Positions 20,934-64,000 are shown, counted from the first letter of the stretch. The stretch is DNA of 64,000 nucleotides from Methanobacteriota archaeon (GCA_016214785.1 JACRNV010000056.1:6843-70842); one strand, 5' to 3'. Notes: generated by a model not told the origin, from the sequence alone. Program-made: numbers and translations.

Positions 20934-20954
20934 GGGCATTCTCCCGCCGGTACT

Positions 20955-21180
20955 TGCTGGGAATCGAATTCCCCTATCACCCCGGACGAAAATTGTTCTT
21001 CAGGGCATGCTTCGTCGATAATTTTGACAATCGATGCCCTTATGTAAATCCTTTTGGGGGTCAAGGGGGATTTCCGAAGAAATCCCCTTGGTCGAAAGGA
21101 TTCTCACCGTCGCCGCATGCTATCGAGTGCTCACTACCATACCGCATGCGGCTGGGTTCGAATCCTTGGCTGGGAATCAA
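20955..21180. repeat. Palindrome- and repeat-dense intergenic block carrying a ~50-nt copy of the tRNA-Ala intron hairpin (21047-21095)
   Basis: Flanked by the direct repeats cttgctgggaatcga (20955) and cttggctgggaatcaa (21167). Contains the GGGAATCGAATTCCC palindrome, the hairpin gggggtcaagggggatttccgaagaaatccccttg (~85% identical to 61741-61790), two copies of the self-complementary CCGCATGCGG (21112-21121, 21142-21151), and a T-arm-like GGGTTCGAATCC (21154-21165). Confidence 0.55.
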
Positions 21181-21199
21181 CTGTTAAAATAAATGGGTG

Positions 21200-21272
21200 C
21201 GCCGTCGACAGGATTCGAACCTGTGACCTGCTGATTAACAGTCAGCCGCTCCACCGACTGAGCTACGACGGC
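21200..21272 (-). tRNA. tRNA-Asn (anticodon GTT)
   Basis: Reverse complement folds as GCCGTCG-TA-GCTC-AGTCGGTG-GAGC-G-GCTGA-CTGTTAA-TCAGC-AGGTC-ACAGG-TTCGAAT-CCTGT-CGACGGC-G, a 73-nt cloverleaf. CCA is not encoded. Confidence 0.85.
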
Positions 21273-21367
21273 AGTTCATGGCGAGTGATAAGGGGTTTGT
21301 CAGCCGCGCCCGAGGTGGTCGAGCCACCGAGGCGCGGGCCCTCGTCGATGGCACAGGGGGCCTAGCG

Positions 21368-21388
21368 CACCGACTGAGCTACGACGGC
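21368..21388 (-). repeat. Exact 21-nt duplicate of the tRNA-Asn 5' end (acceptor stem through D-loop)
   Basis: caccgactgagctacgacggc occurs at 21252-21272 (within the tRNA) and again at 21368-21388, 95 nt upstream of the gene in tRNA orientation. The sequences diverge immediately after D-loop position 21. Confidence 0.7.
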
Positions 21389-21482
21389 ACAGTGTCAAAT
21401 GGCCTATAATCCAAAGGGGGATTTAAGTTTATGCCAGTCTGCAACTGTATAAGGGGTAGTTATCGACCTTCAATTAGATCGC

Positions 21483-28800: not shown

Positions 28801-28812
28801 CGTATCTTGTGA

Positions 28813-32449: not shown

Positions 32450-33064
32450 TCAACTATTCGGGACTTTTTGGGCAACATATCTGATCAGGTTCAACAGTTT
32501 TCTTCTCCCTAACCGTATGTCAATCTCGGCCTTTTCCGCAGGGGTCCTCCCGTCCAATCTCATATGGGGGTTCACGAAGTTATGAATGATGGGTCGGAGG
32601 TCGAGAAATGCCTCTGCTCCTTCATCGCTGCCAAAACCCCGCATAGTTTTTGTCCGGTCATTGATGTCACCATTGTAACGCTCGATAGGATTGTTGTTGT
32701 GTTCCAGGCCGTATTTTTTGCATGCGATAGGCACACCGAATTGCAACTTCGCAACTCGAAAGAACAGTTTGTTGAATGCAGCCTTATATAGCCCGAATTT
32801 ATCACTTACGAACGTGACGCGTTTTCTTTTCTTTACTGGCTTACATTTTTCTTTGCGATAGATTTCGAGTATTTGATCGTAGCATGTTCTCTTTATCTGC
32901 ATCAGGAATTCCACGCAGTTCTCGAAGGTACGTGCTTGGACGTACAGATGCGCCAAAATGTACTTTGTTTTGGAATCTATCGCATTCAGGTCATATCTGC
33001 CTTCTTTCCCCACCTTCACGTATTTTTCGCCATAGTGGATTTGTCCCTTGATGATGGGGTTCAC
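32450..33064 (-). CDS. IS6-family transposase, DDE catalytic fragment (OrfB), +1 frame relative to OrfA
   Basis: GTG start 14 nt after the OrfA stop; alignable to IS26 transposase residues ~70-230, including the C-terminal …RGFGSDEGAEAFLDLRPIIHNF…. The frame break sits at the T6A4 homopolymer (33081-33090). Confidence 0.7.
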   Translation of the reverse strand: MNPIIKGQIHYGEKYVKVGKEGRYDLNAIDSKTKYILAHLYVQARTFENCVEFLMQIKRTCYDQILEIYRKEKCKPVKKRKRVTFVSDKFGLYKAAFNKLFFRVAKLQFGVPIACKKYGLEHNNNPIERYNGDINDRTKTMRGFGSDEGAEAFLDLRPIIHNFVNPHMRLDGRTPAEKAEIDIRLGRRKLLNLIRYVAQKVPNS

Positions 33065-33077
33065 ATTGGCCGAGAGC

Positions 33078-33377
33078 CTATTTTAAAAAATCGGAGTACT
33101 TCCGAACCCATTTTGCAATCGCCCACCGAGAAACCCGAACTCCATCGTGTTGCCACAGGTGATTCTTCACCTTTGATAAAGAGAGGCCATCGTTGTGCAT
33201 GTGTATGGCCCGCACAATGATGGCTGGCTTATTTCTCATGCGCTCAAACCCGTCAGATTTGATAAAGCGTCTCTGGCACCTTTTGCACATGCATCTTTGT
33301 TTCGAGCCAGACGTGTTCTTTCTCCTTCCTCGCTTTATCACCTCTTTCGATCCGCAGTATGGGCATGCCAAACGCAT
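33078..33377 (-). CDS. IS6-family transposase, N-terminal zinc-finger/HTH fragment (OrfA)
   Basis: CPYCGS…C…CKRC zinc finger plus HTH resembling the IS26 transposase N-terminus. Ends in TTTTTTAAAATAG. Confidence 0.7.
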   Translation of the reverse strand: MRLACPYCGSKEVIKRGRRKNTSGSKQRCMCKRCQRRFIKSDGFERMRNKPAIIVRAIHMHNDGLSLSKVKNHLWQHDGVRVSRWAIAKWVRKYSDFLK

Positions 33378-33484
33378 TTTATCGCCACGGGTGCATTATC
33401 GCAAGAGGTATTTATAAGTCCCGTTAAGTGGACAATATTCACATACACCAAAATATTTATCTTAATATGCTGTCTGGTTTTTAG

Positions 33485-35002: not shown

Positions 35003-35014
35003 TATTTTTTTAGG

Positions 35015-36226
35015 TTAAGAGTATTTTCGTATTAACTCATTATATTTTACGGTGAAATCCTCCATATTTTTATACCAATTACCTATTTCAAGTGCGCGTT
35101 CACGACATCTCATTCCAAACAACAGTCTTTCATCTTTTTTATTAAGAAGGAATGTAATTTTTTCTGCAAGATCATTAGGATCAGAAGGCCGAAAGGTATA
35201 ACCATTATACTTATTTTCGACTGCAAGTAATAAGGCACCTGGTCTATTCGCGGCCACTATGGAAACACCGCAACTCATTGCCTCAAGCAATGATACGCCG
35301 ATCCCTCCACCGCCTACTTGAATCGGCATAGGATCCACATAGATATCTGAGCTAGCGAAATATTTTGGTATATCTTGATGCGCAAGGTGTCCAATAAAAA
35401 TAACTCGATTTTTCATACCTAGCGATTCGCTCAATCTGATTAAATTATCCTTTTCAGGGCCATCTCCTATAATTAATAATGTAATATAATCATGTTTTGA
35501 AATTATTTTAGCAAAAGCCTTGAGTAATGTCTCAGTGTCATAGGCCTTCTTTAATGCATTCGCTGAAGTTATTATTATTCGATTAGGATTTTTACAAATC
35601 TCCATTCGTAATTCTTCGGAACATTGGGAAGGGTTAAAAAAATCCGTTTCAACACCCCAAATCTGTATGAATATTTTACTTGTTGGACAACCAAGTTCGA
35701 TAAGTCGGTCGCGTCCGGGGATGTCTCCAGTATGTACTAAATCTGCTTTTTTAAACATCTCAATATATTCTTTGTGTTGTTTTGAACCGATAATAGTTGA
35801 GGCTATATCCCCGCCCCATGCACTCAATATTAGTGGATGACGATTCACTTTACATGCCCAATATCCGAATTTACGTAAATAATGACCATGTACAATATCT
35901 GGTTTTATCCTATGTACTAAATATGTAATTTTAACAAATGTGAATAATATATCAAGAGCCGTTATAATTTTCCGAAATAACTTTTTTCTACATTTTTCCC
36001 AATAAAAATTTAATGTGTGTATATCGTGAAGAATGATATTATTGGGATACACGTATGCACCTGGAAAAACACTTTTAGTAATAACTGGGGATTTGAAACC
36101 TGTTGTAAAAAAAAATAGATGAATTATATGTCCCTTACTAGCAAAATAGTCGCACCACCGTTGAGTGTGAATACTATAGATATCACTAAAGATGCATAAT
36201 GTGAGCCGCACGGGCTTTTTATCCAT
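35015..36226 (-). CDS. GT4-family glycosyltransferase
   Basis: C-terminal E..S.G..EAMSCGVSIVA…NGYTF motif set. Start trimmed to MDKKPVRLTLC. Confidence 0.8.
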   Translation of the reverse strand: MDKKPVRLTLCIFSDIYSIHTQRWCDYFASKGHIIHLFFFTTGFKSPVITKSVFPGAYVYPNNIILHDIHTLNFYWEKCRKKLFRKIITALDILFTFVKITYLVHRIKPDIVHGHYLRKFGYWACKVNRHPLILSAWGGDIASTIIGSKQHKEYIEMFKKADLVHTGDIPGRDRLIELGCPTSKIFIQIWGVETDFFNPSQCSEELRMEICKNPNRIIITSANALKKAYDTETLLKAFAKIISKHDYITLLIIGDGPEKDNLIRLSESLGMKNRVIFIGHLAHQDIPKYFASSDIYVDPMPIQVGGGGIGVSLLEAMSCGVSIVAANRPGALLLAVENKYNGYTFRPSDPNDLAEKITFLLNKKDERLLFGMRCRERALEIGNWYKNMEDFTVKYNELIRKYS

Positions 36227-36354
36227 CTCTGATTTTGAATCGTTGTTTTTTATGATCATATAGCAACTAGAAAACGTTATAAAGTGGGGATTAATAGACT
36301 TTGCCATAGGTTTAATATATGGACATCCTCTCATTTCAATCATCGGACAAGAAA

Positions 36355-37398
36355 ATGACTGGTGGTCATAGACCATACAATATAGATAAAGCGCTGGAAT
36401 CGCTTGGCGATAAAGTTACGAGGGTTGTGAATTGGCGCGATTGGGGAATAGACCGTAAGTTGGTGAAGAGACTTACACCAACTCAAATTAATAATAGGTT
36501 AAAACTAAAAAAGTTTCTTGATTTACAAATAAAAAATAAAATCATCCTTTTCCATGGAATCCAAAATGAAAAACTATTGGGCAAGTTTTCCAACTACAGA
36601 TTTCCAATAGTTCTTGATTATAGAGATGACCCCATTCTTCAAGCAGAAATGAATGGCATTCCGATTAATGTAGATAAGGCTAAAAAATTAATTGAATACA
36701 ATTTCAAATCATCTGACATAATCCTCTTTCCTTCAAAGACTCTTATGGATTATTACAGCGAATATAAAGAAAAAGCAATCGTCGTTATGAACGCTTCTGA
36801 CCCTAGTCATTTTAAGTATTCGAAAAATCCACTGAATGATAAAGCAATTTGTCTCTATCCACCAATGCCATGCTTTTTTTATCCGGACGTGCTGGATGCT
36901 AGTACCCTAGTTAGAAACCATATAAAGAATTTCGAAATATCTATCATGAACCTCCAAGCAAAGTATCGAAAATTTTATGGTGATTTTGATAAGACAATAC
37001 ACGTAAAGTATGAGCATCCTTGGATATCGTCCTTCAACTCGATGCCATATAGCGAAATAGGTAAGTTCATTAGTCAATTCACCATTGGTATTATCGCATA
37101 TAAGAAATTCACCTACGCGAACCTGGGTACACCTTTAAAACTCTTTGATTTAATGGCATGTGGACGACCAATCGTCGCCATGCGATGCAAAGAAATTGAA
37201 AAAATCGTTAGCGATGCAAACTGCGGGTTACTTTGTGATTTTACTAAAGAAGATTTAGCAGAAAAAATGATAAATTTACTAGAAAATTCTGATCTGATAA
37301 TAAAAATGGGAGAAAACGGAAGGAGAGCCGTCGAAAAGAAGCATAGCTGGATTCATCGCGCAAAAGTAATTCAAGATGAGATATTGAAATTAACTTGA
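36355..37398 (+). CDS. Glycosyltransferase (GT1/GT4-like C-terminal domain)
   Basis: …KLFDLMACGRPIVA…CGLLCD… C-terminal domain; low GC. Start uncertain (36319/36355). Confidence 0.6.
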   Translation: MTGGHRPYNIDKALESLGDKVTRVVNWRDWGIDRKLVKRLTPTQINNRLKLKKFLDLQIKNKIILFHGIQNEKLLGKFSNYRFPIVLDYRDDPILQAEMNGIPINVDKAKKLIEYNFKSSDIILFPSKTLMDYYSEYKEKAIVVMNASDPSHFKYSKNPLNDKAICLYPPMPCFFYPDVLDASTLVRNHIKNFEISIMNLQAKYRKFYGDFDKTIHVKYEHPWISSFNSMPYSEIGKFISQFTIGIIAYKKFTYANLGTPLKLFDLMACGRPIVAMRCKEIEKIVSDANCGLLCDFTKEDLAEKMINLLENSDLIIKMGENGRRAVEKKHSWIHRAKVIQDEILKLT

Positions 37399-38466
37399 TA
37401 AAATCAATTCATTATATATATCAGAAACTTTTTTCAATACCACTGTACTGTTATACTCGGCATCTATCACTGCACGGGCAGTCTTACTCATTTCAATAAG
37501 CTGATCCTTTGAGACATGTATCTCATCTAGTACTTTTAAGAGATCTTGAATATCGTCTTGTATCAAGAAACCAGTTTTTCTGTCTATCACGGGGTATCTA
37601 TCACCTTTTTCAATCATCATCACAGGACGGCCACATGACATTGCCTCAAGTGTGGCTCGAGATATACCTTCAATCGAAACAGGATTAAAGAGTATATCAA
37701 ACGATTTATACATCTCTGGCATTTTATTATTTGGAACATTTTGTATAAATTTGACTTGATTGATCTTATTATGAGCCCTAAATTTATTTATTGCAATTTG
37801 ATTCCCTGCACCCACAACCGTTAATTCAACATATTGTGGAAGGTTTTCAATAAATTGAGATAGAAGAGGCAATCCCCTAGATAATTCAAGCCTGCCAACA
37901 AACCCAATTTTTAATCTATCGTTCGTTATAAGCTGGGAAAATGAAAAAAGGTCAGTATCCACAGCATTGGGAACAAACCAAACTTTGTTACCCGCATTTT
38001 GATTTAATTTAAGAATGTAATTGTAGATGTTTTTATCAACACAAATAATGTTATCGAACTGGGAGATTACATTGTTTTCATACCATTTGATTATCATATC
38101 AATTTTAGGCATATTATGTAGAGTGCTTAATCCATGTACGGTAGCAATCTTTGGTTTTTTAATGTTAGTAAAATTTATTAATTTAGTAAAAAATGGCCTT
38201 TTTAACCACCTATCAAATCGTAATAAATTTTGTTCTAGAAGGTGGAAATGAACGTGGAGAAGGTCGTAATCGATATTCTCTAATTTACTTATTTTCCTTT
38301 TGTATCTGATTAAATCGCCAATTAACCTAAATGGAAAACTTACTTTACTAATTGTATGATTTTGATAGGGTATAGATGAGCGATCGTTTGGACCAATCCG
38401 ATAAATTGTATTATGCGGCGATATTATTGTATGTTGTTTAGGTGTATTAGGAAGCGCGTTTGTCAC
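37390..38466 (-). CDS. GT4-family glycosyltransferase
   Basis: …ISRATLEAMSCGRPVMM…; N-terminal GT-B Rossmann half. Confidence 0.85.
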   Translation of the reverse strand: MTNALPNTPKQHTIISPHNTIYRIGPNDRSSIPYQNHTISKVSFPFRLIGDLIRYKRKISKLENIDYDLLHVHFHLLEQNLLRFDRWLKRPFFTKLINFTNIKKPKIATVHGLSTLHNMPKIDMIIKWYENNVISQFDNIICVDKNIYNYILKLNQNAGNKVWFVPNAVDTDLFSFSQLITNDRLKIGFVGRLELSRGLPLLSQFIENLPQYVELTVVGAGNQIAINKFRAHNKINQVKFIQNVPNNKMPEMYKSFDILFNPVSIEGISRATLEAMSCGRPVMMIEKGDRYPVIDRKTGFLIQDDIQDLLKVLDEIHVSKDQLIEMSKTARAVIDAEYNSTVVLKKVSDIYNELILSS

Positions 38467-38578
38467 CAGAGAAAAATTATATTGACCGGAGAGACCGGCT
38501 ATTATATTCTCAATGTGCGTTTCAACGCCACCGATTAGTGGTTTAAATTTATCATAGTATAAACAAACCCGTTTAATT

Positions 38579-39687
38579 TTACTCCCCCCCTTCGTTCATA
38601 GTTATTTCATTAATTAAATTTAAGTACTTATCCGCAACACGTTTCCAAGTATAGTTATTTTCAATCGTAAGGATGCCATTTCGAGAAATAGAATCGAATA
38701 GCTGTTTATTTTCTTTAATCTTTCGAATTGCATTTACTATTTGTTCGACCTCCAAATCCACGATTATTCCATTATAACCATCGGTAATAACATCTTTCAT
38801 GCCTCCAATACTACTCACAATAACAGGTTTCCCAATCGACATTGCTTCGAGAGCTCCAAGACCTAATGATTCACCGATTGTAATCTGAGCATAGATATCA
38901 CAAGAGTGTAAAGCGACCCATGAATTGGGTATTGTGCCTGTAAAAACCACATAATCTGTCAATCCTACTTTTTTTACATAGGATCTTAACTCCTCAAGAT
39001 GTGGCCCATCTCGAGTTAAAACCAATCTAATCCCGGGATATATTGCTTTTAATTTAGATATCGCTGTGATGAGTAATTTAGCGCCTTCGGCTTTGTTCTT
39101 TAGAAATGTCAACCCTAATCCCAATACAATGGGATTTGCATTTGATAAGTTAAATTCTTTTTTAAATTGAATTATTTCCTGTTCAGTTACTTCTTCCTTA
39201 TCTGCGCCAGAAACTATTACGGCGGTCTTTACCTTAAATTTAATTTTCCCTACATTTTTAATATTATTAAGATGATACTGAGATACGAAACAAATCACAT
39301 CGCATCGATTTAATAAAAAGTTGTATGCCATTCGTTTATACCATGGAATTGAGGAGGTAAATGACGTGTGAAATAGGTATAAAATGGGGACATGATTAAA
39401 ATATTTAAATAAAATCGCCGGCAACAGGGTAAACCACCCTCCTTGAACGTGCATTACATTTGGTTGTTCTTTGCGTAAGATATTATAGGCTTTAAATGCA
39501 AAAGCAATTTTATTGTTATTCAAACCATAATTTTGTTCGTCCTTACCAATTCTGTAAATCACTTTAACATCATTCTGTTGGTGTCTTGAAAAATAATGTG
39601 CAATTTTTATAACAGTCTTATCAACTCCGCCGCCGCAGCCTTTCCAGTAATTTGTAAGAAAGACTACTTTAGTTTTTTTCATGGTCA
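38579..39687 (-). CDS. GT4-family glycosyltransferase
   Basis: Start MTMKKTKVVFL (ATG 39685-39687); …GLGALEAMSIGKPVIVSSIGGMKDVITDGYNG…. Confidence 0.85.
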
Positions 39688-40001
39688 TTGAAAACCCAAT
39701 GTCTATTATATATATATCTTTTTTGTATTTGTTTAGCTGGCAGCCATACGTCGCAGACAACCCTACATCCCCGCTGGGTCTTTCAAACCTTTCCGATGAA
39801 GGATGCACAAACGCATCTGCTCTCGAAACCCCCTGTTCTAGGTCGGTCAGACGTGAGCTAAACAAATACTCTTTTTTATGGTTTGGGGGAAAAAGATGAC
39901 ATGTAATAATTCATGTAAAACCTTAAATGCTATTTCAATATAAGGATTTACGATGCACAACATTCAACAGCCATCAAATAGACAGGTGATGATAGTATTT
40001 C

Positions 40002-40811
40002 ATGGAGGAAAAAATGAGCCTTAAAAAAATTTTTGGATTATTACCCGAAAGAAGTATAAAGCATAAAATTAGATGTATTTACTACAATAATTTTAAGGAT
40101 ATCGATTTTCAACTATCGTATAAAAAGGGACATTATACTGTTACATTCAAAGATGGAATTGTAATTAAATTTTATAATAATCCCTGTGGAATTCTTACAG
40201 AAATTGTTAAAGAATATTTTCTTAAATATAAGTTGAAAAAAGGAGATATTGTGATTGATGCGGGGGCGTGGTTCGGCCCATTTGCCATATACGCGGCTTC
40301 ACAGATAGGCCCCACTGGCAAAGTTATTGTTTTTGAGCCGGATCCTTTAAATTACATCGATTTGAAAAATAACATTTTGTTAAATAATCTAAATAACATT
40401 GTAGCTATCAACAAAGGGCTTTGGAATACTAAATCGACCCTTCGATTTTTTTCAATAGGAAAATATTCTGGAGGATCACATATATTATTCGACGATTCTT
40501 TAAAAGAAAATAAAGGATACGTCGAAATTTCAGTTGTAAGTCTTGATGAAGAGTTGAAATTACAGGGAATTAGTCAAGTAGATTTTATAAAAATGGACAT
40601 TGAAGGGGCTGAAATAGAAGCTATTGAAGGGAGTAAAAATATACTGCAAAATAGAAATACTAATCTAGCAATCGCTACTTATCATATTCGAAATGGAGAG
40701 ATGACATGTAAAAAAGTAGAGCATTTGTTAAAATCATATGGATATTATGTGGAATCATTGAACCCGCACCATCTGACAACATATGCGACGCCCATTGATA
40801 GTCGAAATTAA
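40002..40811 (+). CDS. FkbM-family SAM-dependent methyltransferase
   Basis: VIDAGAWFGPFAIYAA (SAM-binding Gly-rich motif), FEPDPLNY, …FIKMDIEGAEIEAI…. Confidence 0.85.
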   Translation: MEEKMSLKKIFGLLPERSIKHKIRCIYYNNFKDIDFQLSYKKGHYTVTFKDGIVIKFYNNPCGILTEIVKEYFLKYKLKKGDIVIDAGAWFGPFAIYAASQIGPTGKVIVFEPDPLNYIDLKNNILLNNLNNIVAINKGLWNTKSTLRFFSIGKYSGGSHILFDDSLKENKGYVEISVVSLDEELKLQGISQVDFIKMDIEGAEIEAIEGSKNILQNRNTNLAIATYHIRNGEMTCKKVEHLLKSYGYYVESLNPHHLTTYATPIDSRN

Positions 40812-40834
40812 TTAGAGAATAAAAATGTAATATT

Positions 40835-42586
40835 TTATATGGCCCATATTGAACAATAACTTCTAATGTATATCAGTGATGCGGAATTACCAGATATAGT
40901 CTTACGTAGATGCCACTGTGGAGGGGGTAATTCAACACCTGAAAATCCGTTATTTTTTAAGGTTACAACTAGCTCGTAATGATTATTAATAATGAGAAGA
41001 GGATATTGAACTGTAAAATCAATTTGACCTATGCCCCTACCCTGTACTGCGCCCATGTACGTTGTAGCCATGGGGCCGTGAATGCTGTTGGTTGTCGATT
41101 CCCAGTAAATGCCTTCAATATTATCAGGCATTTCCCTATCGATATTATATTGTATTGAATAAAATGATAGGGCAATAGAGGCCACAACTAAAATGATTAC
41201 TATCTTTTTTATTTGATGCTTTTCTCGAAGTAAATTTATTGTTCCCCAGCCCACTAATATAGAAATAAATGGAGCTAGGTAAATATACGTTCTCTGTAGT
41301 TTTACGTCAACATAATATTCGCCTACTATTAGAAAGATCAGAAACATTGAAAGGCTCAATACTGCAGATAGCATTAGATAATTCCTGCGTACTTTCGAAA
41401 TCACAAGATATACGGATGGAACAATTATTACTAAAGGTAGAAGATTGATATGCCAAGCATACATTATCTGCTTTAATAAAGTAATAAAGGAAGTTTCTTT
41501 TGCTTCAGAACTAATGACTTCCCAGAGAGTCACGAAGCCTGACGGAGAAGTCGGTATGTCAACTCCAATTGTAAAAATTGTGACTAATAATAGAACGCCT
41601 AGTATCATCGGAATTCCTAACATTAGCAGGACCCACTGATGACTTTTTATTTTTTTACTCGGTAATGGTCCCAATTCTTTACTCTGAAAAATTGGTTTCT
41701 TCCGAACAAGATATAATATTGTAAGAAGCATAAAAATCGCTATTATCAGCCCGAGTATTTGTTCTTTAGTCATTTCTATACCAAATATCATTACGTCGAA
41801 ACGCTTTGAAATTATTCCCCCAAGGCGCATTATTGTTTCGACAGGTGCATTGTACCAGAAAAAGAATGACATAAGACCTCCAATTAGAGTGGAGAAAATT
41901 AGTGGTGTTTGGAAAGTATGAAAAAAATTTTGCTTGTTTTTAACAAAGGGTAACATAATAACAGAAATAATTACTACAATAGTAAGCCATATAACAGCAG
42001 TCGGTCTATGTGTTATAAAAATAGAAAAAACGAAAATTGTGCAAAAGATAAACTTAATTAGATCATCATTTACCACAGCCAATGTAAGGAAAATTAATAG
42101 TATAAGTATATTCCCATATGAGGAAGGTAATATATTCATCGGCCCATGCATATTTGTTCCAGAAATAAAAAGTGATCCACAAAAGCTGGCAATAAAACCG
42201 ATATAGCTATTATTTGTAATTTTTTTTGCCAGTAAATAAATTAAAATGCAAAAAAATACCCAGAATATAATTGATAAATATGATACATCCATAAAATTGA
42301 TTCCAGTTAATTCCCTTGCATTATTTAGGATTAATGTGAAGCCCGGTGGATAAAACTCATATGTTCCATTCAGCCGAAAGATATTGCTCCATGATGTGTC
42401 AAAATTCAATCTCTGCTCAAAATCAATTTGACGCATTTGAATGACCTGGCTCCAAAAATCTGGATTCGTTATGCCATTATAAGAATGATTTATATAATAC
42501 ACAGAATATTCTAGGGTACATACGAAAAATATTATTGTAAGTAGAAATAATAATTCGATTTTTCGCTTCATTTCGGCCTCCCACAT
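40835..42586 (-). CDS. Polytopic integral membrane protein (≥12 TM) with ~100-aa C-terminal soluble domain; possible polysaccharide polymerase or GT-C-like enzyme
   Basis: 583 aa, very hydrophobic, in the glycosylation island between glycosyltransferase genes. No family confidently recognised. Confidence 0.55.
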   Translation of the reverse strand: MWEAEMKRKIELLFLLTIIFFVCTLEYSVYYINHSYNGITNPDFWSQVIQMRQIDFEQRLNFDTSWSNIFRLNGTYEFYPPGFTLILNNARELTGINFMDVSYLSIIFWVFFCILIYLLAKKITNNSYIGFIASFCGSLFISGTNMHGPMNILPSSYGNILILLIFLTLAVVNDDLIKFIFCTIFVFSIFITHRPTAVIWLTIVVIISVIMLPFVKNKQNFFHTFQTPLIFSTLIGGLMSFFFWYNAPVETIMRLGGIISKRFDVMIFGIEMTKEQILGLIIAIFMLLTILYLVRKKPIFQSKELGPLPSKKIKSHQWVLLMLGIPMILGVLLLVTIFTIGVDIPTSPSGFVTLWEVISSEAKETSFITLLKQIMYAWHINLLPLVIIVPSVYLVISKVRRNYLMLSAVLSLSMFLIFLIVGEYYVDVKLQRTYIYLAPFISILVGWGTINLLREKHQIKKIVIILVVASIALSFYSIQYNIDREMPDNIEGIYWESTTNSIHGPMATTYMGAVQGRGIGQIDFTVQYPLLIINNHYELVVTLKNNGFSGVELPPPQWHLRKTISGNSASLIYIRSYCSIWAI

Positions 42587-43839
42587 ATTTTTTTCTTTGA
42601 TTCAATAGTAGAGTAATATAGTGCGAAAATTTTTTCAGCAATATTTTCCCACGAATATTGATGAGCATCTCTAGCTATTCGATCCCTATCCCATTCTCTT
42701 TCGATTGCTCTAATAACAATCTCGGATATATCTTCAGGCTTTTCTACAACAATTCCAGATTCTTTCGTCAATATTTCCTTAACTCCTCCGACATTGGTCG
42801 TGATTACTGGCAAACCGCATGATAGTGCCTCAAACATTACAGTAGGATTACCCTCCGCAGTGCTGGTTAAAATGAATAAATCCGCGGAATTATACCAATA
42901 GTTCAATTCTTCAATCGTTTTTTCTGTACTAACAATTGATACACATTTTGATAGCTGATAATCACCAACTAATTTTTTCAAGAATTTCTCTTCTGGACCT
43001 GTGCCAATAATAGTCAAAATGGAATTCGGATATTTCTCGTAGATTTTTCTATAGCTCTTAATTAAAGAATCATAAGCCTTTCTTTTTGTTAGAGACCCGA
43101 TTGATAAAAGTAAAAATTTATCCGTCGGAATATTTAGATATTTACGTGCTAATGTTTTATTCATAATATAGAAATGCTTTGATGGAAAACCATTGGGAAT
43201 AATATTAATTTTACTAGAAACTAAATCAGTTTCATATAGATTTTTATCTACTGAAGTAACTCGAATAATATTGGTAAATTTTTGGAGTAAATTCTGTATT
43301 TTGCTATCTTTCATTAAATCTGCGAATATGTTTTGATTTTCATGATTTGTCAGAACGATTGGAATATCGAAAAATTTTGTAAGTTCATATGCGACTATTC
43401 CCGAAGAAATGACGAAATGAGCATGAATTATATCTGGTCGATTATTTCTAAAAAGATTTTTTACTATCCATTTCGCAATTCGTTTAGAAGCCATTTGTTT
43501 AGAATAAAAAGAATGAAAATAAATAGGTTTAGGAAAATAAATTTCGATATTCTGATATACATAATTCTGTGCAATTATATCTCGTTGATGAGCGGGTGTG
43601 AGAAAACGCTTAAATATTGGTATATTTGGAACATATGGAGTCATAGCGATCACAGTGACTTTATTGAATTTTACACTTAATGCATCGACCTGTCCCTTGA
43701 CGAAGGCTCCACTAATAGGATCTCCAACATGGGGATACCTATTGCAAATGATTAATAACCAATTTAAATGAGTGGGGCTTTTTATGTTGTTCATCATTAG
43801 ACCTCTTGAATCAACATTATTCGAATATGATATAGCCAT
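42568..43839 (-). CDS. GT4-family glycosyltransferase
   Basis: …STAEGNPTVMFEALSCGLPVITTNVGGVKEIL…. Confidence 0.85.
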   Translation of the reverse strand: MAISYSNNVDSRGLMMNNIKSPTHLNWLLIICNRYPHVGDPISGAFVKGQVDALSVKFNKVTVIAMTPYVPNIPIFKRFLTPAHQRDIIAQNYVYQNIEIYFPKPIYFHSFYSKQMASKRIAKWIVKNLFRNNRPDIIHAHFVISSGIVAYELTKFFDIPIVLTNHENQNIFADLMKDSKIQNLLQKFTNIIRVTSVDKNLYETDLVSSKINIIPNGFPSKHFYIMNKTLARKYLNIPTDKFLLLSIGSLTKRKAYDSLIKSYRKIYEKYPNSILTIIGTGPEEKFLKKLVGDYQLSKCVSIVSTEKTIEELNYWYNSADLFILTSTAEGNPTVMFEALSCGLPVITTNVGGVKEILTKESGIVVEKPEDISEIVIRAIEREWDRDRIARDAHQYSWENIAEKIFALYYSTIESKKKICGRPK

Positions 43840-43852
43840 GTTTTTTTCGCAA

Positions 43853-44911
43853 TCATACAGACACCGATGATTTTTTTATATTTGAATTTTCTATAAGCTG
43901 TACCACGTATTCCGTTACATCTATTTTATCATTTAACATTTTTGCTTGCTTTTGTTTCCATACGCTCTTTAGATTGTGAACATTAAGCAATGAAGAAATC
44001 TCCTCGATTATCTTTTGAATATTTTTATCATTTCTGAGATGATAGTAGAGGAGACCATATTTTACTTGTTCAGAAATTGTCCCGGGCTTTAAATTATTAA
44101 CATATATAGCAGGAGTTCCTAATATCGCTGCCTCGGATGCCATTGTTGCTCCTTCACCAATGTATATCGTTGCGTAATAAAGTAAATCATGCATTTTTTC
44201 GGGAGGTATCTTCATCATATAATGCTTGTATTTACATTCAATTGGGGCTTCCGATGTAATAATTATCTTAACTTTTTTTTCAATTTCGGATATTAAGTTG
44301 TTGAAAGTAACCTCTTTCTCTTTATTATTACCGATATCGTGTGCTGCGTCCCATGATACAAATCTAATTATTACAAACTTCTCTCCTGGAGTGATGCCCG
44401 CTTCCTTTAATGTATCTGGGTTCGGTTTAAAATATTTAGGATGAAGGTAAGCTAATTCTTTGAAACCATTATATCTTACTTGCTTCTTTCCCAGGTTCTT
44501 CGTGTAGCAAACAGGCGTACATATCACTGTAATGAACGTATCCATCAGGAAATGCTCGAACTTCGAGTGCTCCGTATCATCGAAAACTATGGATGGCTTG
44601 CCGATTATCTTTCCTACATGCGCGACGTACACGTTCCCTACGCCACCCACGAGTACGTCTGGTTTGAACTTCTTTGCTATTCTTAATATCTTCCAATCCT
44701 TCTTTATCAATTCGACGGCCTTTTGGATTAGCGTGGATGGCGACTTTCCGATTACTTCGTATTCGAAACCGTAAGCTTTTAACAATTGTATTGCTACGTC
44801 CTTATCAGAGGTCGTTATCTTGCATACATGCCCACGCTTTTGTAACTCCCAGATAGTGTTCTTGAAGAAGTGCACCTGCGCCGGATGCCCGATGTTGAAA
44901 AGTATCCTCAT
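43853..44911 (-). CDS. DUF354-family protein (predicted glycosyltransferase/epimerase-like)
   Basis: Start MRILFNIGHPAQVHFFKNTIWELQKRGH, the hallmark N-terminus of DUF354. Overlaps the deacetylase-like stop (ATGA). Confidence 0.7.
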   Translation of the reverse strand: MRILFNIGHPAQVHFFKNTIWELQKRGHVCKITTSDKDVAIQLLKAYGFEYEVIGKSPSTLIQKAVELIKKDWKILRIAKKFKPDVLVGGVGNVYVAHVGKIIGKPSIVFDDTEHSKFEHFLMDTFITVICTPVCYTKNLGKKQVRYNGFKELAYLHPKYFKPNPDTLKEAGITPGEKFVIIRFVSWDAAHDIGNNKEKEVTFNNLISEIEKKVKIIITSEAPIECKYKHYMMKIPPEKMHDLLYYATIYIGEGATMASEAAILGTPAIYVNNLKPGTISEQVKYGLLYYHLRNDKNIQKIIEEISSLLNVHNLKSVWKQKQAKMLNDKIDVTEYVVQLIENSNIKKSSVSV

Positions 44912-45690
44912 TGCCTCGACCTCAAAAACATCTTCCCCACGTTCCTCACGTTCTGCCCCACCAACTCTGAGAGCCACTCCACCTTTCCTCTAGCCCATCT
45001 CTGGGGATGGGTATTGACCATCACGCGCTTGTACCGCTGTGAGTTCATCACCTCGACAAGGTGCTCCGTGCCCTTTATCCTTTCGCCGAGGGGCCGGCCC
45101 AGCCTGTCCCTCACGCTGGCCTCGCCGCTGCTCCACTTCCTTCCGGTGTCCGTTATGTACGCCACGTCCTCGAACTTCCCGGAGATGTGCGGGTCGCCGA
45201 GGAGGCCGTGCTTGTTCAGGTCCACCCCTCTCAGGAGGTCGGCGTTGTCCACCCTCGAGAGCGGGGAGCCGTGCATGGCCACGGTCCGGACGGGCGCGAG
45301 CTCCCTCAGGATGGCGAGCTTGGACCCGAAGTCCTCCAGCGCCTTGTCCTTGTCCCCTATCTCTGAGAGGTTCTCGTAGTGGTACCCGACCTCGTGGCCG
45401 AAGAGCTTGCACTCGAGCACCTCCTTCTCCGGGAAGCCCGGTACTCCAGGGAAATCGGGCGTGGCCTCGGGCATCCAGCGGAAGTAGTACGTGGCCCGCA
45501 CGCCCCGCGCCTTCTCCATCCTGGCCATCCGGGACGCGCGGGACGGAAAGCGATCAACATCGTGCCGGAGGACGCAGAACGGCTCGGAAGCTTTGCCGGA
45601 GAGGAAATCCTCGACTGTGGCGACGCCGTACCCCGCGAGGGCGTCAAGCAGCCTGGAGTAGGCGTCGAGGGTGAAGTCCATCGGCCTCAA
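44908..45690 (-). CDS. Polysaccharide deacetylase-like (CE4-related) protein; first high-GC gene after the island
   Basis: …VLRHDVDRFPS…RATYYFRW…HEVGYHYE… (Asp/His metal-site pattern of CE4-like deacetylases). GC ~64%. Confidence 0.65.
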   Translation of the reverse strand: MRPMDFTLDAYSRLLDALAGYGVATVEDFLSGKASEPFCVLRHDVDRFPSRASRMARMEKARGVRATYYFRWMPEATPDFPGVPGFPEKEVLECKLFGHEVGYHYENLSEIGDKDKALEDFGSKLAILRELAPVRTVAMHGSPLSRVDNADLLRGVDLNKHGLLGDPHISGKFEDVAYITDTGRKWSSGEASVRDRLGRPLGERIKGTEHLVEVMNSQRYKRVMVNTHPQRWARGKVEWLSELVGQNVRNVGKMFLRSRQ

Positions 45691-46528: not shown

Positions 46529-47794
46529 TTACTTTTCCGCCTCCAGCAGCCACTTCCAGAGCGGCACGGACCGTACGCCCGCCTCCCCCGCTTCCTCGTC
46601 CCGCGTTATCACCAGGCCATCGCCTATCCCGAGATCGCCCATGCAGCGCGACAGGCCGCGGAACTCCCTCTTGCGGGCGTCCGGGTCCGCGAGGTCGAAG
46701 CACACCTGCACCGCCAGCGTCTTCCTGCCGCGGCCCAGGACGAAGTCCACCTCGTAGCCGGCCCTGTCCTTCCAGTAATGGAAGGTCGCGCCGCGCCGAG
46801 CGAGCTCGGCTGCGACAACTGTCTCGTAAAGATGCCCCTCCCCGACATTGCCGATCACGCTCGCCAGGCCCGCGTCATAGCAGTAGACCTTGCGGGGGTA
46901 CTGGAGCCGGTCCCTGATGCGGGTCGAAAATATCGTGACGTCGAACAGCAGGAACGCGTCCCTGAGGTGGCCGAAGTACCGAATCAGCGTCGGGACCGAG
47001 ATCGGCGCCCCGATGCTCTTGAAATATCTGGACATCTTGCCGAAGGATAGGAGGTTCCCGGAGTTCGAGACGAGGTAGTCCGAGAGCTCCGAGAGCGTGG
47101 CCGCCCCCCGCACTTTCGCCAGGACGTCCCGGGCGACCGAGTCCGCGTAGAGATGGGCCAGCATCTCCTCCTTCAGTTCGGACAGCACGACCTCCGGGTA
47201 GCCGCCGTGCCTGAGGTATTGCTCCAGCGCGCCCTTCACGAGCGCCCTGGCCCGCTCGGTCTTTGGGGACTTTTCGATTCCCACGAACCCGAGGTACTCG
47301 CGGAACGACAGCGGCAGGACGACCGTCGTCAGATGCCGCCCGGCCAGCAGCTTGGCGACGTCGGGCCTCATGAGCCGGGCGGTGGACCCGGACACGGTGG
47401 TCTTGACCCGCCCCTTGAACTCGTCCTGGATGCTCCGAACATAGCGTTCCCAATCCGGAACTCTCTGCACCTCATCCAGGAACAGGTAAACCCTGCCGTG
47501 CCTCTCCAGCAGGCGTTCTGCATGGATGACCTCGACGAGGTCGTTGAACATTGAGCCTTGGACCGGCGCGAGCTTCCTGTTCTCGAAGTTCAGATAGATG
47601 GTCGCTTCCTTCGGGACATGTTCCAGCAACTGGCTTATCGCATGAAACATCAGGTAAGTCTTCCCCGCTCTCCTCGGGCCCACGATGTCATTAATCAGGT
47701 CGCTATCAAGCTGCGTCTCGACCTCCCGCGCCCTGACTTCGGGAAGCTGGCTTTCCCAGTATTCCCTGACCGCGCTGTCGATCTTTGAATTCAT
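46529..47794 (-). CDS. AAA+ ATPase of the COG1373 / DUF4143 family (paralog 2)
   Basis: Walker A (GPRRAGKT), Walker B (LFLDEVQ). Collinear with 27457..28698. Confidence 0.85.
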   Translation of the reverse strand: MNSKIDSAVREYWESQLPEVRAREVETQLDSDLINDIVGPRRAGKTYLMFHAISQLLEHVPKEATIYLNFENRKLAPVQGSMFNDLVEVIHAERLLERHGRVYLFLDEVQRVPDWERYVRSIQDEFKGRVKTTVSGSTARLMRPDVAKLLAGRHLTTVVLPLSFREYLGFVGIEKSPKTERARALVKGALEQYLRHGGYPEVVLSELKEEMLAHLYADSVARDVLAKVRGAATLSELSDYLVSNSGNLLSFGKMSRYFKSIGAPISVPTLIRYFGHLRDAFLLFDVTIFSTRIRDRLQYPRKVYCYDAGLASVIGNVGEGHLYETVVAAELARRGATFHYWKDRAGYEVDFVLGRGRKTLAVQVCFDLADPDARKREFRGLSRCMGDLGIGDGLVITRDEEAGEAGVRSVPLWKWLLEAEK

Positions 47795-61652: not shown

Positions 61653-61815
61653 TGGACCCATCGGGATTTGAACCCGAGGCCTCCTGCTGTTTTGGCTCCC
61701 CAACCCCAGTCCGGCGGAATTGGCGAGTGCCAAATCCTTTCCGTGGGGGTCAAGGGGGATTCCCGAGGGAATCCCCTTGCAAAGCAGGCGATCTTCCGGG
61801 CTGATCTATGGGCCC
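61653..61815 (-). tRNA. tRNA-Ala (anticodon TGC) with an 89-nt intron at the canonical 37/38 position (intron ≈ 61689..61777)
   Basis: Exons fold as GGGCCCA-TA-GATC-AGCCCGGAA-GATC-G-CCTGC-TTTGCA^A-GCAGG-AGGCC-TCGGG-TTCAAAT-CCCGA-TGGGTCC-A. The G3:U70 pair is the tRNA-Ala identity element. The intron contains the hairpin GGGGATTCCCTCGGGAATCCCC. A T-rich stretch (TTTTACTTTCT) follows the 3' end. Confidence 0.8.
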
Positions 61816-61886
61816 AGCTTGCGTGGCTATTGAGCGGCGGGATATAATTGTTTCCCTGCAGCGCAGGGCCGAGGATAATCTTTTCT

Positions 61887-64000
61887 ATGTGTGATGTTTT
61901 CGCGCTAAACGGGGGCATCTTGGAGGCTTTCGAATTCAGGGAGCCGCGGTTCGTTGGCAGGACCGCCGAGCTCGATACCCTGACCAGGCATCTAGGCGAA
62001 GCGCTCAGCGGCCGTGGAAGGACGCTCATCGTGACCGGGGAGCCGGGAATGGGCAAGTCCAGGCTCGTCAGGGAGTTCCTTAGGAAACACGGGGAGGAGG
62101 GCGGCTGCCTCGTCATCAACGGGGCGGCTCTTGCCGATTCTGCGCATCCGTTTCAGCTGTTCTCAAGCGCGCTCCGTGAAACGACAGCCGCCCCGCTTTT
62201 CCAAGAGACCGAGTTTGTCTCTTTTTCCACAGTCCTCGCCCTCGATGGCCAAGGGCGTGTCCTGGCATGCGTGACTTCAAAGACAGGCTCCGATTTCGAA
62301 GCTGGAAGGCTTGCGAAGATGATCTCGGGCGTCCAGGACTTCGTCTGCGACTCGTTCTTTAAGCAAACCCCTGAAAAAAAGGGCGGGCTAGACCGGCTCG
62401 AGTACGGCGATGCCAAGGTGCTGATGGAGCGCGGCGACGGCTTTGTCATCTGCGCCCTGTTCAAAGGGGGTGAGAATCCGGAGATGCGAGAGCATCTCAG
62501 GAGGACCGTTCGGGAGATGGAGGCGCTCGGAGGGGGGGAAGGCGGCAGAACAGTATATTCGCTTCAATCGGCATTGACCCATCTCGTCGACCTCAGAATG
62601 AAGGTTCGCCGGGACCTGGAGCGCGTGAACCTCGATGCCGAGAGGAACAGAATCTCAGGGGAAATATTGAAAGCCCTCTCTAGGATCGCCGATGATAAGC
62701 CCCTCATCCTGGCGCTCGAGGACGTCCATTGGGCCGACGAGTCCTCGGCATTCGTCTTCAACTACCTCTGCAGGAACGCCCGCCGCGAGAAGATGTTAGT
62801 GGTGGCGACATCGCGGCCCAGGGAGAATTCCCCCATCCAGGGAGTCGTCCGCGGCCTGCTCGATGACGGAATGCTCACCGAGATAGAGGTCAGGGAGCTT
62901 GGAGTCGGCCTCGCCGCCGACATCGTGAATGACATCTTCCAGGAAAACTCGATACCCCGGTCGTTCATTGAAGAACTGTCGAAACGCTGCGAGGGCAACC
63001 CACTATTCCTGATCGAGACCCTGAGGCAGATGGCCGCGGACGGGGCGATCGCCTCGGGGGGGGAGGGCCACCATCTTGCAAAGGAGGGGTTCGCGATACC
63101 TGGCACCGCCGGGGAGATGGTCAAACGGAGGCTCGAATCGCTCGATCCCGATGCCATGGCCGTCGCCGAGTACGCTTCCTGCATCGGGAGGGTGTTTGAG
63201 GTCAATGCAGCGCTTTCGATACAGAGCATCCGTGATGGCCCATTGGCTCTCAAGCGGCTGCGCGATTCCGGCCTTCTCGTCAAAAGAGGGGGAAAGATGG
63301 AATTCGCCCACGAGCTCTTCCGAGAGGCGATATACGGCGGAATCGGGGAGAGATGGAGGCTCGCGTACCACAGAGCCCTGGGCGAGTACTACGAAAGAGC
63401 GCACGCGGACGACCTTGACGCCGTGCTCTACGATCTGGCCAGTCATTTCTCGAGGAGCGCCTGCCACGAGAAGGCATACGATTACTGCACCAGGGCGGCG
63501 GAGAAGGCGGAGGGCGCTTACGCCCCTGAGCAGGCGATTGCGTTTTTCGAGGCGTCGCTCCGGTCCTTGGGCACGCTCCGAGAGAAGCCCAAGGGGGCGG
63601 ACCCGGGGCGCATCCGCCTCAGGATTGGGCAGGACCTTCAGCTCATCGGCCAGCTGGACAAGGCCGAAGCCTCGTACAGGGCGGTCATCGAGGCATCCTC
63701 TGCGGATGGGGACAAGGGGCTCCTCGCGGACGCCTACTCGGGGCTCGGGAACGTCCTGTGCCACAAGCCAGAATACGAGACGGCGCTCGACTTCTCGCAG
63801 AAGGCGATTGCCATTTATAAAAAGCGCGATGATAACATCGGTGTTTTCAAGGCCATGGGGAGCATCGGCTACGTGCACTACTACCGCGGCGAATACGACA
63901 AGGCGATGGAATGCTTCGATGCCCAGCTCGCCCTGGCCGAGAAGGACGGGGACAAGCTCCGCGTCGGCAGAGCCCTGAGCGACATGGGGGGCATCTACTG
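61887..64000 (+). CDS. STAND-type P-loop NTPase with a Roadblock/LC7-like domain inserted between Walker A and Walker B, followed by C-terminal TPR repeats (Avs-like architecture); 3'-truncated by the window end
   Basis: ATG 61887. …FVGRTAELDTL…TLIVTGEPGMGKSRLV (Walker A). ~150-aa insertion …VLALDGQGRVLACVTSKTG…DAKVLMERGDGFVICALF… (Roadblock-like). LILALEDVHWADESS (Walker B). Then helical/TPR region. No stop before 64000, so it is absent from the ORF track. Alternative-frame ORFs 63003..63878 and 63076..63978 are noise. Confidence 0.75.
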   Translation, partial: MCDVFALNGGILEAFEFREPRFVGRTAELDTLTRHLGEALSGRGRTLIVTGEPGMGKSRLVREFLRKHGEEGGCLVINGAALADSAHPFQLFSSALRETTAAPLFQETEFVSFSTVLALDGQGRVLACVTSKTGSDFEAGRLAKMISGVQDFVCDSFFKQTPEKKGGLDRLEYGDAKVLMERGDGFVICALFKGGENPEMREHLRRTVREMEALGGGEGGRTVYSLQSALTHLVDLRMKVRRDLERVNLDAERNRISGEILKALSRIADDKPLILALEDVHWADESSAFVFNYLCRNARREKMLVVATSRPRENSPIQGVVRGLLDDGMLTEIEVRELGVGLAADIVNDIFQENSIPRSFIEELSKRCEGNPLFLIETLRQMAADGAIASGGEGHHLAKEGFAIPGTAGEMVKRRLESLDPDAMAVAEYASCIGRVFEVNAALSIQSIRDGPLALKRLRDSGLLVKRGGKMEFAHELFREAIYGGIGERWRLAYHRALGEYYERAHADDLDAVLYDLASHFSRSACHEKAYDYCTRAAEKAEGAYAPEQAIAFFEASLRSLGTLREKPKGADPGRIRLRIGQDLQLIGQLDKAEASYRAVIEASSADGDKGLLADAYSGLGNVLCHKPEYETALDFSQKAIAIYKKRDDNIGVFKAMGSIGYVHYYRGEYDKAMECFDAQLALAEKDGDKLRVGRALSDMGGIY

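Follow-up and report, generated by a model that had tools for sequence, protein, structure and literature searches.

A hairpin module shared by the intron of an archaeal tRNA-Ala gene and a strain-variable spacer beside tRNA-Asn

In a 64,000-nt stretch of DNA from a Methanobacteriota archaeon (GCA_016214785.1, JACRNV010000056.1:6843-70842; hereafter, the window, meaning the whole stretch analyzed), we found that the intron of a tRNA-Ala(UGC) gene and the spacer next to a tRNA-Asn(GUU) gene carry homologous copies of one hairpin module. The spacer copy belongs to a block that differs between strains, while the intron copy sits at the 5′ splice site of a conserved tRNA gene. Our preferred reading, held tentatively, sees in the module a structured repeat that DNA-level copying carried from one tRNA locus to another and that today makes up the 5′ domain of the tRNA-Ala intron.

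RESULTS

Two homologous copies of a hairpin module lie at two tRNA genes

The intron copy (W1) and the spacer copy (W2; Table 1) have the same orientation and agree at 42 of 45 aligned bases with one 3-nt indel, which corresponds to 93% identity with the gap excluded and 87.5% with the gap included. The module consists of a 12-bp stem (61779 to 61751 in W1) with one bulged C, followed by GACCCCC and AAAGGAUUU, and W1 begins with C36 and A37 of the tRNA-Ala itself. A 35-nt degenerate pattern of the module matched exactly twice in the window, against 0 matches expected (100 shuffles), and the blastn E-value between W1 and W2 was 3e-8. A previous reading of this DNA, made from the sequence alone (the sequence-only reading), had described a ~50-nt copy of the intron hairpin at ~85% identity 40 kb away; this copy is a true homologue, located at 21046-21090, rather than a chance palindrome. 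The further copies that it had envisaged did not materialize in the 64-kb window, where a covariance model of the module, run over the entire length with no filters, recovered the W1 and W2 loci only. Both copies are located at the only two tRNA genes of the 64 kb and on the tRNA strand. At both loci, moreover, the CAAGGGG end of the module abuts tRNA-derived sequence, namely, the anticodon loop of tRNA-Ala and a T-arm/acceptor-like fragment beside tRNA-Asn. Beyond the 48-nt core, the similarity between intron and spacer was not significant on either side (shuffle test).

For comparison, we used contigs of relatives (L094 to L099 and L103 to L106), which were reached via 90% protein clusters and are 84–92% identical in DNA. 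Contig L106 (European Nucleotide Archive ERZ27247960) represents a related population with coding DNA ~84% identical to the window and covers tRNA-Ala; L105, from the same sample, spans the whole helicase/tRNA-Asn/GYD interval; and L097 and L098 begin inside the gene neighboring tRNA-Ala, with the tRNA outside both contigs. Across 59 kb of related loci, no module copies were found outside the two orthologous places. A shared architecture reaching beyond the core, in which CCCCUUGACCCC would pair with a downstream G4-N-G4, was considered and is not supported by L094.

To follow the stem, four instances of the module (the window intron, the L106 intron, the window spacer, and a cut spacer unit of L094) were compared in a structure-guided alignment. 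In this small sample, three pairs have changed on both sides (AU/UA, CG/UA, and CG/GC); all six variable stem columns belong to these three pairs, and no cell is unpaired. This substitution pattern is what a maintained hairpin would give, as far as four sequences can indicate. A UUCG loop, read on the tRNA-sense strand, is present in two of the four instances, and the single-stranded tail GACCCCC...AAAGGAUUU does not vary. With each of the intron orthologs, the spacer copy has one derived-looking state in common, which implies that the duplication is approximately as old as the split of the strains and not recent.

Three contigs, from three independent assemblies made with two assemblers, end inside the module or exactly at its edge (L094 at its own position 2355, L099 at window position 61758, and L103 at window position 61732). 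Such ends suggest, as a soft hint, further copies or strain heterogeneity in those samples.

A genome collection that does not contain the source genome, scanned with GGGGGTCAAGGGGN{12,16}CCCCTTG, yielded 91 loci, all bacterial or unrelated and sharing only what the pattern enforced. A stricter hairpin pattern had 0 matches in metagenomes, the hairpin pattern had one unrelated match among viral sequences, and blastn of the spacer against phages and plasmids returned chance T-arm matches only. The window encodes an archaeosine synthase-type gene, which indicates that its source is an archaeon. The nearest non-self proteins to the DEAD-box helicase encoded at 19803-20933 are 59% identical (Hydrothermarchaeota) or 38–50% identical (Thermoplasmatota). 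In the hydrothermarchaeal contig with the 59% identical helicase (L092), a tRNA-Pro follows the helicase gene and the module is absent, a relative too distant to inform the comparison.

The tRNA-Ala gene and its intron are conserved in a related population

The Rfam model RF00005 scored 48 bits at the tRNA-Ala locus, against a threshold of 29 bits, with an insertion of 91 nt in the anticodon loop; ARAGORN with intron search reported tRNA-Ala(tgc) with an 89-nt intron, whereas default ARAGORN misses the gene. The acceptor stem is GGGCCCA/UGGGUCC, including G3:U70, the anticodon is UGC, CCA is not encoded, and a T-run lies 3′ of the gene. The complete cloverleaf with G3:U70 that had been recognized from the sequence is thus upheld by the Rfam score and by our reading of the exons. 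The 89-nt intron at 37/38 is likewise corroborated by the ARAGORN intron search, the exon reading, and the L106 ortholog, and its near-palindromic hairpin GGGGAUUCCCUCGGGAAUCCCC is present as described.

In L106, the tRNA-Ala(UGC) gene has an 87-nt intron at the same site, and 77 of 89 intron positions are identical to those of the window. The exons are identical at 67 of 74 positions; acceptor pair 7:66 and two T-stem pairs have changed on both sides, no pair is broken, and G3:U70 (pair 3:160) is a GU pair in the window as in L106. Downstream of the gene, no alignment between the window and L106 is possible. Since exons and intron are conserved and the stem changes compensated next to a flank that cannot be aligned, we conclude that the tRNA is under selection and that the intron is constrained over most of its length.

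The 5′ flank of tRNA-Ala also differs by strain, with homology ending ~42 nt upstream of the tRNA (window 61816-61890 compared with L106 1-320). In the window, the next gene upstream is a divergent AAA_16-TPR gene starting from 61887, whose nearest non-self homologues are only 38–41% identical; in L106, the position is taken by a divergent tRNA-Arg(GCG).

Three other metagenomic tRNA-Ala(UGC) genes (L100 to L102), from organisms of different G+C content, have no intron and share a 23-nt stretch of the D-arm and anticodon arm; in L100, the 38-nt 5′ half is identical to the 5′ exon of the window. The intron is therefore not universal among similar tRNA-Ala genes. On L101 (8364-9534), an unrelated metagenomic contig, the intron-less tRNA-Ala(UGC) is followed after 17 nt by a tyrosine integrase (PF00589, E = 2.4e-9), which indicates that this type of tRNA serves elsewhere as an integration site.

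The splice junctions combine a central helix with a local hairpin

To locate the splice motif, we enumerated every 3-4-3 arrangement (two 3-nt bulges with a 4-bp helix between them). One candidate alone excises 89 nt and restores tRNA-Ala; the strands of its central helix and both bulges are given in Table 1. The outer helix of this motif is the 5-bp anticodon stem, which exceeds the minimum of at least 2 bp. The inner helix amounts to 1 bp, given that only G40-C121 can pair in both orthologs, whereas the strict hBHBh′ motif needs at least 2 bp. Thus, of the bulge-helix-bulge anticipated at the tRNA-Ala junctions, the outer helix, the two bulges of 3 nt, and the central helix of 4 bp are there, and the inner helix falls short. 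The module hairpin directly follows the 5′ bulge, at the place expected for the inner helix, and all bases of the splice motif are unchanged in L106. By published definitions, the predicted motif is of the relaxed hBH type. The gene for the splicing endonuclease EndA lies outside the window.

Forcing the cloverleaf and splice motif gave a fold of −75.3 kcal/mol, compared with −80.5 kcal/mol for the unconstrained fold, i.e., at a cost of ~5 kcal/mol. In the constrained fold, the intron is predicted to form two domains, the 5′ hairpin and a second domain (Table 1), the closing helix of which displayed no covariation between the two orthologs.

The spacer beside tRNA-Asn varies between strains

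The tRNA-Asn gene is convergent with the helicase gene, and comparison with three related contigs allows the intergenic region around it to be divided into two blocks, A and B (Table 1). In L094, block A is ~90% identical and contains two tandem module units, compared with one in the window. One of these units has the same frame with an unrelated inner stem and a 15-nt loop; in the other, G:C replaces C:G beside the UUCG loop. Block A is absent from L105, which spans the whole interval. In the same contig, block B is inverted relative to the flanking helicase and GYD genes (window 21092-21438 compared with L105 1597-1941), and the inversion breakpoint at 21091/21092 coincides with the outer edge of module W2.

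The other hairpins of block A also show changes that preserve pairing. The first overlaps the stop codon of the helicase gene and has one compensated pair between the window and L094, in which the change from TAG to TAA is matched by C to T in the partner arm; in the second, four of four substitutions are in loops. The spacer (20934-21198) is unusually structured on both strands, with fold z-scores of −4.8 (minus) and −3.0 (plus). Between tRNA-Asn and W2 lies TTTATTTT, a likely terminator, and no clear promoter was seen upstream of W2.

Several pieces of tRNA-like sequence surround tRNA-Asn. The sense T-arm/acceptor-like fragment that abuts W2 is longer in L105, where it matches the 3′ end of tRNA-Asn at 22 of 27 positions. 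This fragment and the 22-nt copy of the tRNA-Asn 5′ end in the leader both enclose only ~90–115 nt and are conserved among strains. Gene conversion may have preserved the leader copy as the scar of an integration, or the leader may be functional. The leader as a whole (21273-21440, minus strand) is 92% conserved, and its hairpin changes by compensation (GGTGG/CCACC compared with GGCGAC/GTCGCC). An 11-nt half-module, AAATCCCCCTT, is located at 21414-21424, 14 nt inside the far breakpoint of block B (p ~0.01, uncorrected).

The palindromes and the T-arm-like GGGTTCGAATCC that had been noted in this spacer are indeed there. However, a perfect inverted repeat of 12–14 nt between the 3′ part of a tRNA (T-arm or acceptor end) and its trailer 17–43 nt downstream occurs at four tRNA loci of this lineage, following tRNA-Ala and tRNA-Asn in the window and tRNA-Ala and tRNA-Arg in L106, with ~0.002 such repeats estimated per locus by chance. 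Given these inverted copies at other tRNA loci, the T-arm-like motif represents a trait of tRNA trailers throughout the lineage rather than a piece of a tRNA. At ~50 nt further on, tRNA-Asn of the window and tRNA-Ala of L106 have a sense T-arm-like copy in which TTC has become TGA (GGTGAGAATCC and GGTGAAAATCC, respectively), which makes alternative pairings possible.

The 14-nt direct repeats that had been proposed to bound the repeat-rich block did not hold up at that length: only 10 nt are exact (GCTGGGAATC at 20956 and 21169), or 13 of 14 with one gap. Approximately 0.15 direct repeats of this kind are estimated by chance in that region, L094 has GCTGATAATC and L105 has GTAGCAAATC in their place, and the repeats do not coincide with the strain-variable block at 20934-21091. 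Being neither kept in L094 and L105 nor placed at the limits of the variable block, they were rejected as a target duplication.

Table 1. Coordinates of the module copies, the two tRNA loci, and associated features (window positions unless L106 is named)
Feature	Coordinates	Strand	Remarks
Module copy W1 (48 nt), CAAGGGGAUUCCCUCGGGAAUCCCCCUUGACCCCCACGGAAAGGAUUU	61732..61779	−	starts 2 nt before the 5′ splice site
Module copy W2 (45 nt), UUCG loop	21046..21090	−	on the tRNA-Asn strand, 109 nt downstream of tRNA-Asn
tRNA-Ala(UGC) gene with intron	61653..61815	−	163 nt, mature 74 nt; Rfam RF00005 48 bits, aragorn -i
tRNA-Ala 5′ exon (positions 1-37, one additional D-loop base)	61778..61815	−	sequence reading, Rfam
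tRNA-Ala intron, 89 nt	61689..61777	−	site 37/38, ambiguous by 1 nt (37/38 or 38/39)
tRNA-Ala 3′ exon	61653..61688	−	sequence reading, Rfam
Central 4-bp helix, 5′ strand UUUG (tRNA positions 32-35)	61780..61783	−	followed by the 3-nt 5′ bulge C-A|A, 61779-61777
Central 4-bp helix, 3′ strand CAAA, near the intron 3′ end	61691..61694	−	followed by the 3-nt 3′ bulge A-C|A, 61690-61688
Predicted second intron domain, closed by CCUUGACCCC/GGGGUUGGGG, inner hairpin GGAUUUGGC/GCCAAUUCC	61698..61755	−	constrained fold; RNAalifold on two orthologs
TATA-like ATTATAT, putative promoter	61842..61848	−	26 nt upstream of the tRNA-Ala 5′ end; kept in L106
tRNA-Asn(GUU)	21199..21272	−	ARAGORN; Rfam 75 bits
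Block A, 158-nt hairpin-rich noncoding	20934..21091		hairpins 20930-20977 and 21003-21041, module W2; strain-variable
Block B, tRNA-Asn with leader and trailer, 347 bp	21092..21438		inverted in L105 (blastn coordinates, strands)
Sense T-arm/acceptor-like fragment GGUGAGAAUCCUUUCGAC	21091..21108	−	15/18 to tRNA-Asn; directly abuts W2
Copy of the tRNA-Asn 5′ end, 22 nt exact, in the tRNA-Asn leader	21368..21389	−	116 nt upstream; unchanged in L104 and L105
Perfect 12-nt inverted copy of the tRNA-Asn T-arm	21155..21166		the T-arm-like motif of the sequence-only reading
tRNA 3′-part/trailer inverted repeats, window	21155-21166/21210-21221; 61615-61626/61644-61655
tRNA 3′-part/trailer inverted repeats, L106	128-141/166-179; 460-471/513-524

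The spacer and the intron match no known RNA family or second tRNA

Rfam searches of the spacer on both strands at E ≤ 10 gave nothing besides tRNA-Asn, and ARAGORN at an 80% threshold proposed only implausible models there. When tRNA-Asn or tRNA-Ala was aligned to the spacer, p was ~0.04 among six tests, which does not survive correction, and our enumeration found no 3-4-3 motif framing W2. On the basis of the Rfam, ARAGORN, and alignment results, we rejected a second, split-half, or permuted tRNA in the spacer. On reading, neither C (RUGAUGA) and D (CUGA) boxes nor a pseudouridylation pocket with an ACA box could be found, and there was no Rfam match at E ≤ 10; box C/D, H/ACA, signal recognition particle, and RNase P assignments likewise had no support in the Rfam searches. 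A resemblance to integron attC sites was also dismissed: the conserved frame matches the R″/R′ consensus at 5 of 7 positions, and there are no cassettes.

These results sort the three identities that the sequence-only reading had offered for the spacer copy. A degenerate second intron-bearing tRNA receives no support, with no Rfam tRNA besides tRNA-Asn at E ≤ 10 and only implausible ARAGORN models. For a mobile intron-derived element, mobility gains support from block A, which is present, duplicated, or absent by strain, while derivation from the intron does not follow. A structured noncoding RNA gains support as well, in that the hairpins of block A evolve by compensatory or loop-only changes.

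Other features of the window

A low-G+C island of 13 kb (32000-45400; G+C 0.31–0.41, compared with 0.60–0.68 elsewhere) encodes glycosyltransferases, a polysaccharide exporter, and an FkbM methyltransferase, with an open reading frame (ORF) for an IS240-like DDE transposase at its edge (32450-33064). The island is probably a horizontally acquired surface-glycan cluster; as a candidate for an element integrated at tRNA-Asn it was rejected, being a glycan-synthesis cluster 11 kb away. A 77-nt G+C-rich repeat occurs in three copies (27167-27243, 28729-28805, and 29450-29526; 74–86% identical) around an AAA_14/DUF4143 ATPase gene, and a second gene of this type is located at 46529-47794. A 12-nt periodic repeat, GCCGTTSGTSAG..., at 24619-24817 falls inside an ORF on the minus strand (21796-25464; ~1,160–1,220 aa) that has no Pfam match and probably encodes a repetitive surface protein.

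DISCUSSION

How archaeal tRNA introns are gained is unsettled; published proposals invoke transposition of intron sequence from one tRNA gene to another or its capture from elements with tRNA genes as integration sites. The locus described here is a compact case in a different, poorly sampled lineage, in which a selected intron domain is homologous to a unit of a strain-variable block. The view that we tentatively prefer, that of a structured repeat copied between tRNA loci, takes the module to be mobile at the DNA level because its presence and copy number are polymorphic across strains, because a rearrangement breakpoint lies at its edge, because tRNA-derived sequence abuts it at both loci, and because both copies are limited to the only two tRNA genes of the window. 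The module would have been copied from one tRNA locus to the other, in either direction, by insertion or recombination at tRNA-derived sequences, and this copying would predate the divergence of the sampled strains. Within tRNA-Ala, the module would be harmless, as the splicing endonuclease and a ligase would remove it, and it may since have been recruited as the 5′ domain of the intron, adjoining the 5′ cleavage site. What we infer from these observations is that the intron is spliced and that the module was copied as DNA, as well as any part that the hairpin plays in recognition of the cleavage site. Regarding relative age, L106 has the intron copy while the spacer of L105, from the same sample, is without the module; the intron copy is therefore at least as old as the spacer copy.

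Several points weigh against this preferred reading. No integrase, transposase, or reverse transcriptase was found adjoining either locus in an ORF scan that was not exhaustive for small or decayed ORFs, and the only transposase-like ORF (32450-33064) is 11 kb away. Neither terminal inverted repeats nor conserved target duplications flank block A or the intron, and nothing in the spacer corresponds to the 3′ half of the intron. With two copies in 64 kb and none elsewhere in 59 kb, the "repeat family" comes down to four or five instances. The two copies have diverged from each other about as much as the orthologous introns have, so nothing points to recent mobility. Conservation of the stem in the spacer copy could equally reflect an RNA function unrelated to mobility. 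Finally, the 1-bp inner helix falls short of the strict motif that is reported as needed by the α4 and α2 splicing endonucleases typical of Euryarchaeota, the relaxed hBH type having been described mainly for organisms with (αβ)2 or ε2 enzymes.

The main rival, which we regard as somewhat unlikely, takes the module for a functional RNA motif: a hairpin that binds protein or serves processing, or else the central part of a small RNA that the intron would release and that would have a separate paralogue transcribed from the tRNA-Asn trailer. On this view, the module would be kept at both places owing to its use at each. By analogy, it could resemble the guide RNA that resides in the tRNA-Trp intron of some Euryarchaeota and is separately encoded in others. 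Stem compensation in intron and spacer copies alike, the UUCG loops on the tRNA-sense strand in two of four instances, and the invariant single-stranded tail GACCCCC...AAAGGAUUU all fit such a role, as do an intron about as conserved as the exons next to an unalignable downstream flank, the pronounced structure of the spacer on the tRNA strand (z = −4.8), and the position of both copies in or beside tRNA transcription units. However, our reading of the sequence revealed no arrangement of C, D, or ACA boxes, no Rfam family matched at E ≤ 10, the likely terminator TTTATTTT stands between tRNA-Asn and W2, and no clear promoter precedes W2. The number of spacer units differs in L094, and the spacer copy is dispensable given that L105 does without it. 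An explanation with the intron as the source, in which a piece of it would have reached the flank of tRNA-Asn via DNA recombination or reverse transcription of the excised RNA, leaving W2 as a relic, accounts well for a shared segment that starts within 2 nt of the 5′ splice site. It also suits the occurrence of the intron copy (L106) in a sample whose tRNA-Asn spacer has no module (L105), i.e., an intron copy at least as widespread as the other. We nevertheless consider it unlikely: only the first 46 of 89 intron nt are shared, the two different tandem units of L094, among them the one whose inner stem is unrelated, are left unexplained, no reverse transcriptase was seen in the window, and the spacer copy, which shares states with each intron ortholog in turn, looks like a recent derivative of neither.

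The remaining two explanations fare worse. That the spacer is a decayed second intron-containing tRNA gene, or half of a split tRNA, is largely refuted and very improbable. T-arm-like and acceptor-like fragments do flank the module, a plus-strand segment (21102-21176) reads as a unit of tRNA length with acceptor-like pairing and a T-arm-like motif, and the tRNA-Asn and tRNA-Ala alignments are marginal (p ~0.04 each). Against this, Rfam detects no tRNA on either strand at E ≤ 10, ARAGORN models at the lowered threshold are implausible, the p-values fail correction for six tests, and the T-arm-like pieces are more readily accounted for as locus-specific inverted copies of the T-arm of the neighboring tRNA, which other tRNA loci of the lineage also have. 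A chance resemblance of two G+C-rich palindromes is refuted, and we assign it practically no weight, even though GGGG...CCCC hairpins are common and a pattern of the frame only matched 91 unrelated bacterial loci and one viral contig. The 42 of 45 identities include a non-palindromic 19-nt tail, shuffles are expected to give no match, the blastn E-value is 3e-8, and each copy is conserved in a relative, W2 in L094 and W1 in L106.

A bolder form of the preferred reading, which strikes us as quite unlikely, makes the copied module one end of a small mobile element with tRNA-derived sequence as its target. On landing in an anticodon loop, the element would supply the helix by the 5′ cleavage site and be cut out by the splicing endonuclease of the host, so that the insertion would be born as an intron. 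If true, it would be a directly observed gain of an archaeal tRNA intron outside the Thermoproteales, with the copies in the tRNA-Asn spacer representing the element at a non-spliced site. A cleavage site with a local hairpin next to it, in place of an inner helix, is relevant to the range of substrates that the splicing endonuclease of this lineage accepts. An intron-bearing tRNA is in itself ordinary for Archaea, and the understanding of tRNA introns is unchanged by these data.

Comparison with known systems

Like the archaeal protein-spliced introns at 37/38, which contain a bulge-helix-bulge and are EndA substrates, the tRNA-Ala intron has the same position, 3-nt bulges, and a 4-bp helix; this helix is formed by bases of the anticodon loop and the 3′ end of the intron, and excision restores a cloverleaf with G3:U70. 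Unlike them, its 89 nt make a long intron that is predicted to fold into two domains, and a local hairpin stands in for the inner helix of 1 bp. The relaxed hBH motif, known mainly from organisms with (αβ)2 or ε2 enzymes, occurs here in a metagenome-assembled genome labeled Euryarchaeota.

Bacterial repetitive extragenic palindromic (REP) sequences and bacterial interspersed mosaic elements (BIMEs), hairpin-ended derivatives of IS200/IS605, and archaeal miniature inverted-repeat transposable elements (MITEs) are short imperfect palindromes with an extrahelical base that occur singly or in tandem in intergenic regions. In such small hairpin repeats and miniature elements, strains differ in copy number, and substitutions in the stem compensate each other. 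The module resembles them as an imperfect palindrome with an extrahelical base and as a unit found once (window), twice (L094), or not at all (L105) in the spacer. It differs in that no matching transposase was found for it and it has neither terminal inverted repeats nor a conserved target duplication, and also in its very low copy number in the DNA examined and the location of one copy inside a tRNA intron.

In the Thermoproteales, near-identical intron sequence in several tRNA genes was read as late spread at the DNA level, according to the account of 2010 work in PMC4090602. As far as that account goes, the likeness consists in near-identical intron sequence at more than one tRNA-associated place per genome; in our case, however, the second copy lies in a strain-variable spacer and not in a tRNA, the sharing extends to only half of the intron, and the lineage is not related to the Thermoproteales. 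Cases of the Thermoproteales type have an intron of >70% similarity in a second tRNA gene with a splice motif, a description that does not apply to W2.

In Haloferax and other Euryarchaeota, a box C/D guide RNA resides inside the tRNA-Trp intron (PMC4090602). The tRNA-Ala intron is similarly long, conserved, and at the canonical position, and it may carry a functional RNA; in contrast to the tRNA-Trp intron, it has no C/D or C′/D′ boxes, evident k-turn, or Rfam match.

For the tRNA-Thr(GGU) of Caldiarchaeum subterraneum, intron gain together with scattered tRNA fragments was ascribed to an integrating element (Sugahara et al. 2012, PMC3293823). Common to that case and ours are a strain-variable tRNA locus, an upstream direct repeat of a 5′ fragment of the tRNA, and inserted DNA that is linked to an intron. 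Unlike Caldiarchaeum, the window has no recombinase gene or 1.8-kb insertion, its variable block being 158 nt of hairpins, and the 5′ fragment of tRNA-Asn lies just 116 nt upstream and is conserved in all three strains. A shared, constrained module at a rearranging tRNA locus therefore represents a modest variant of the known scenarios of intron gain.

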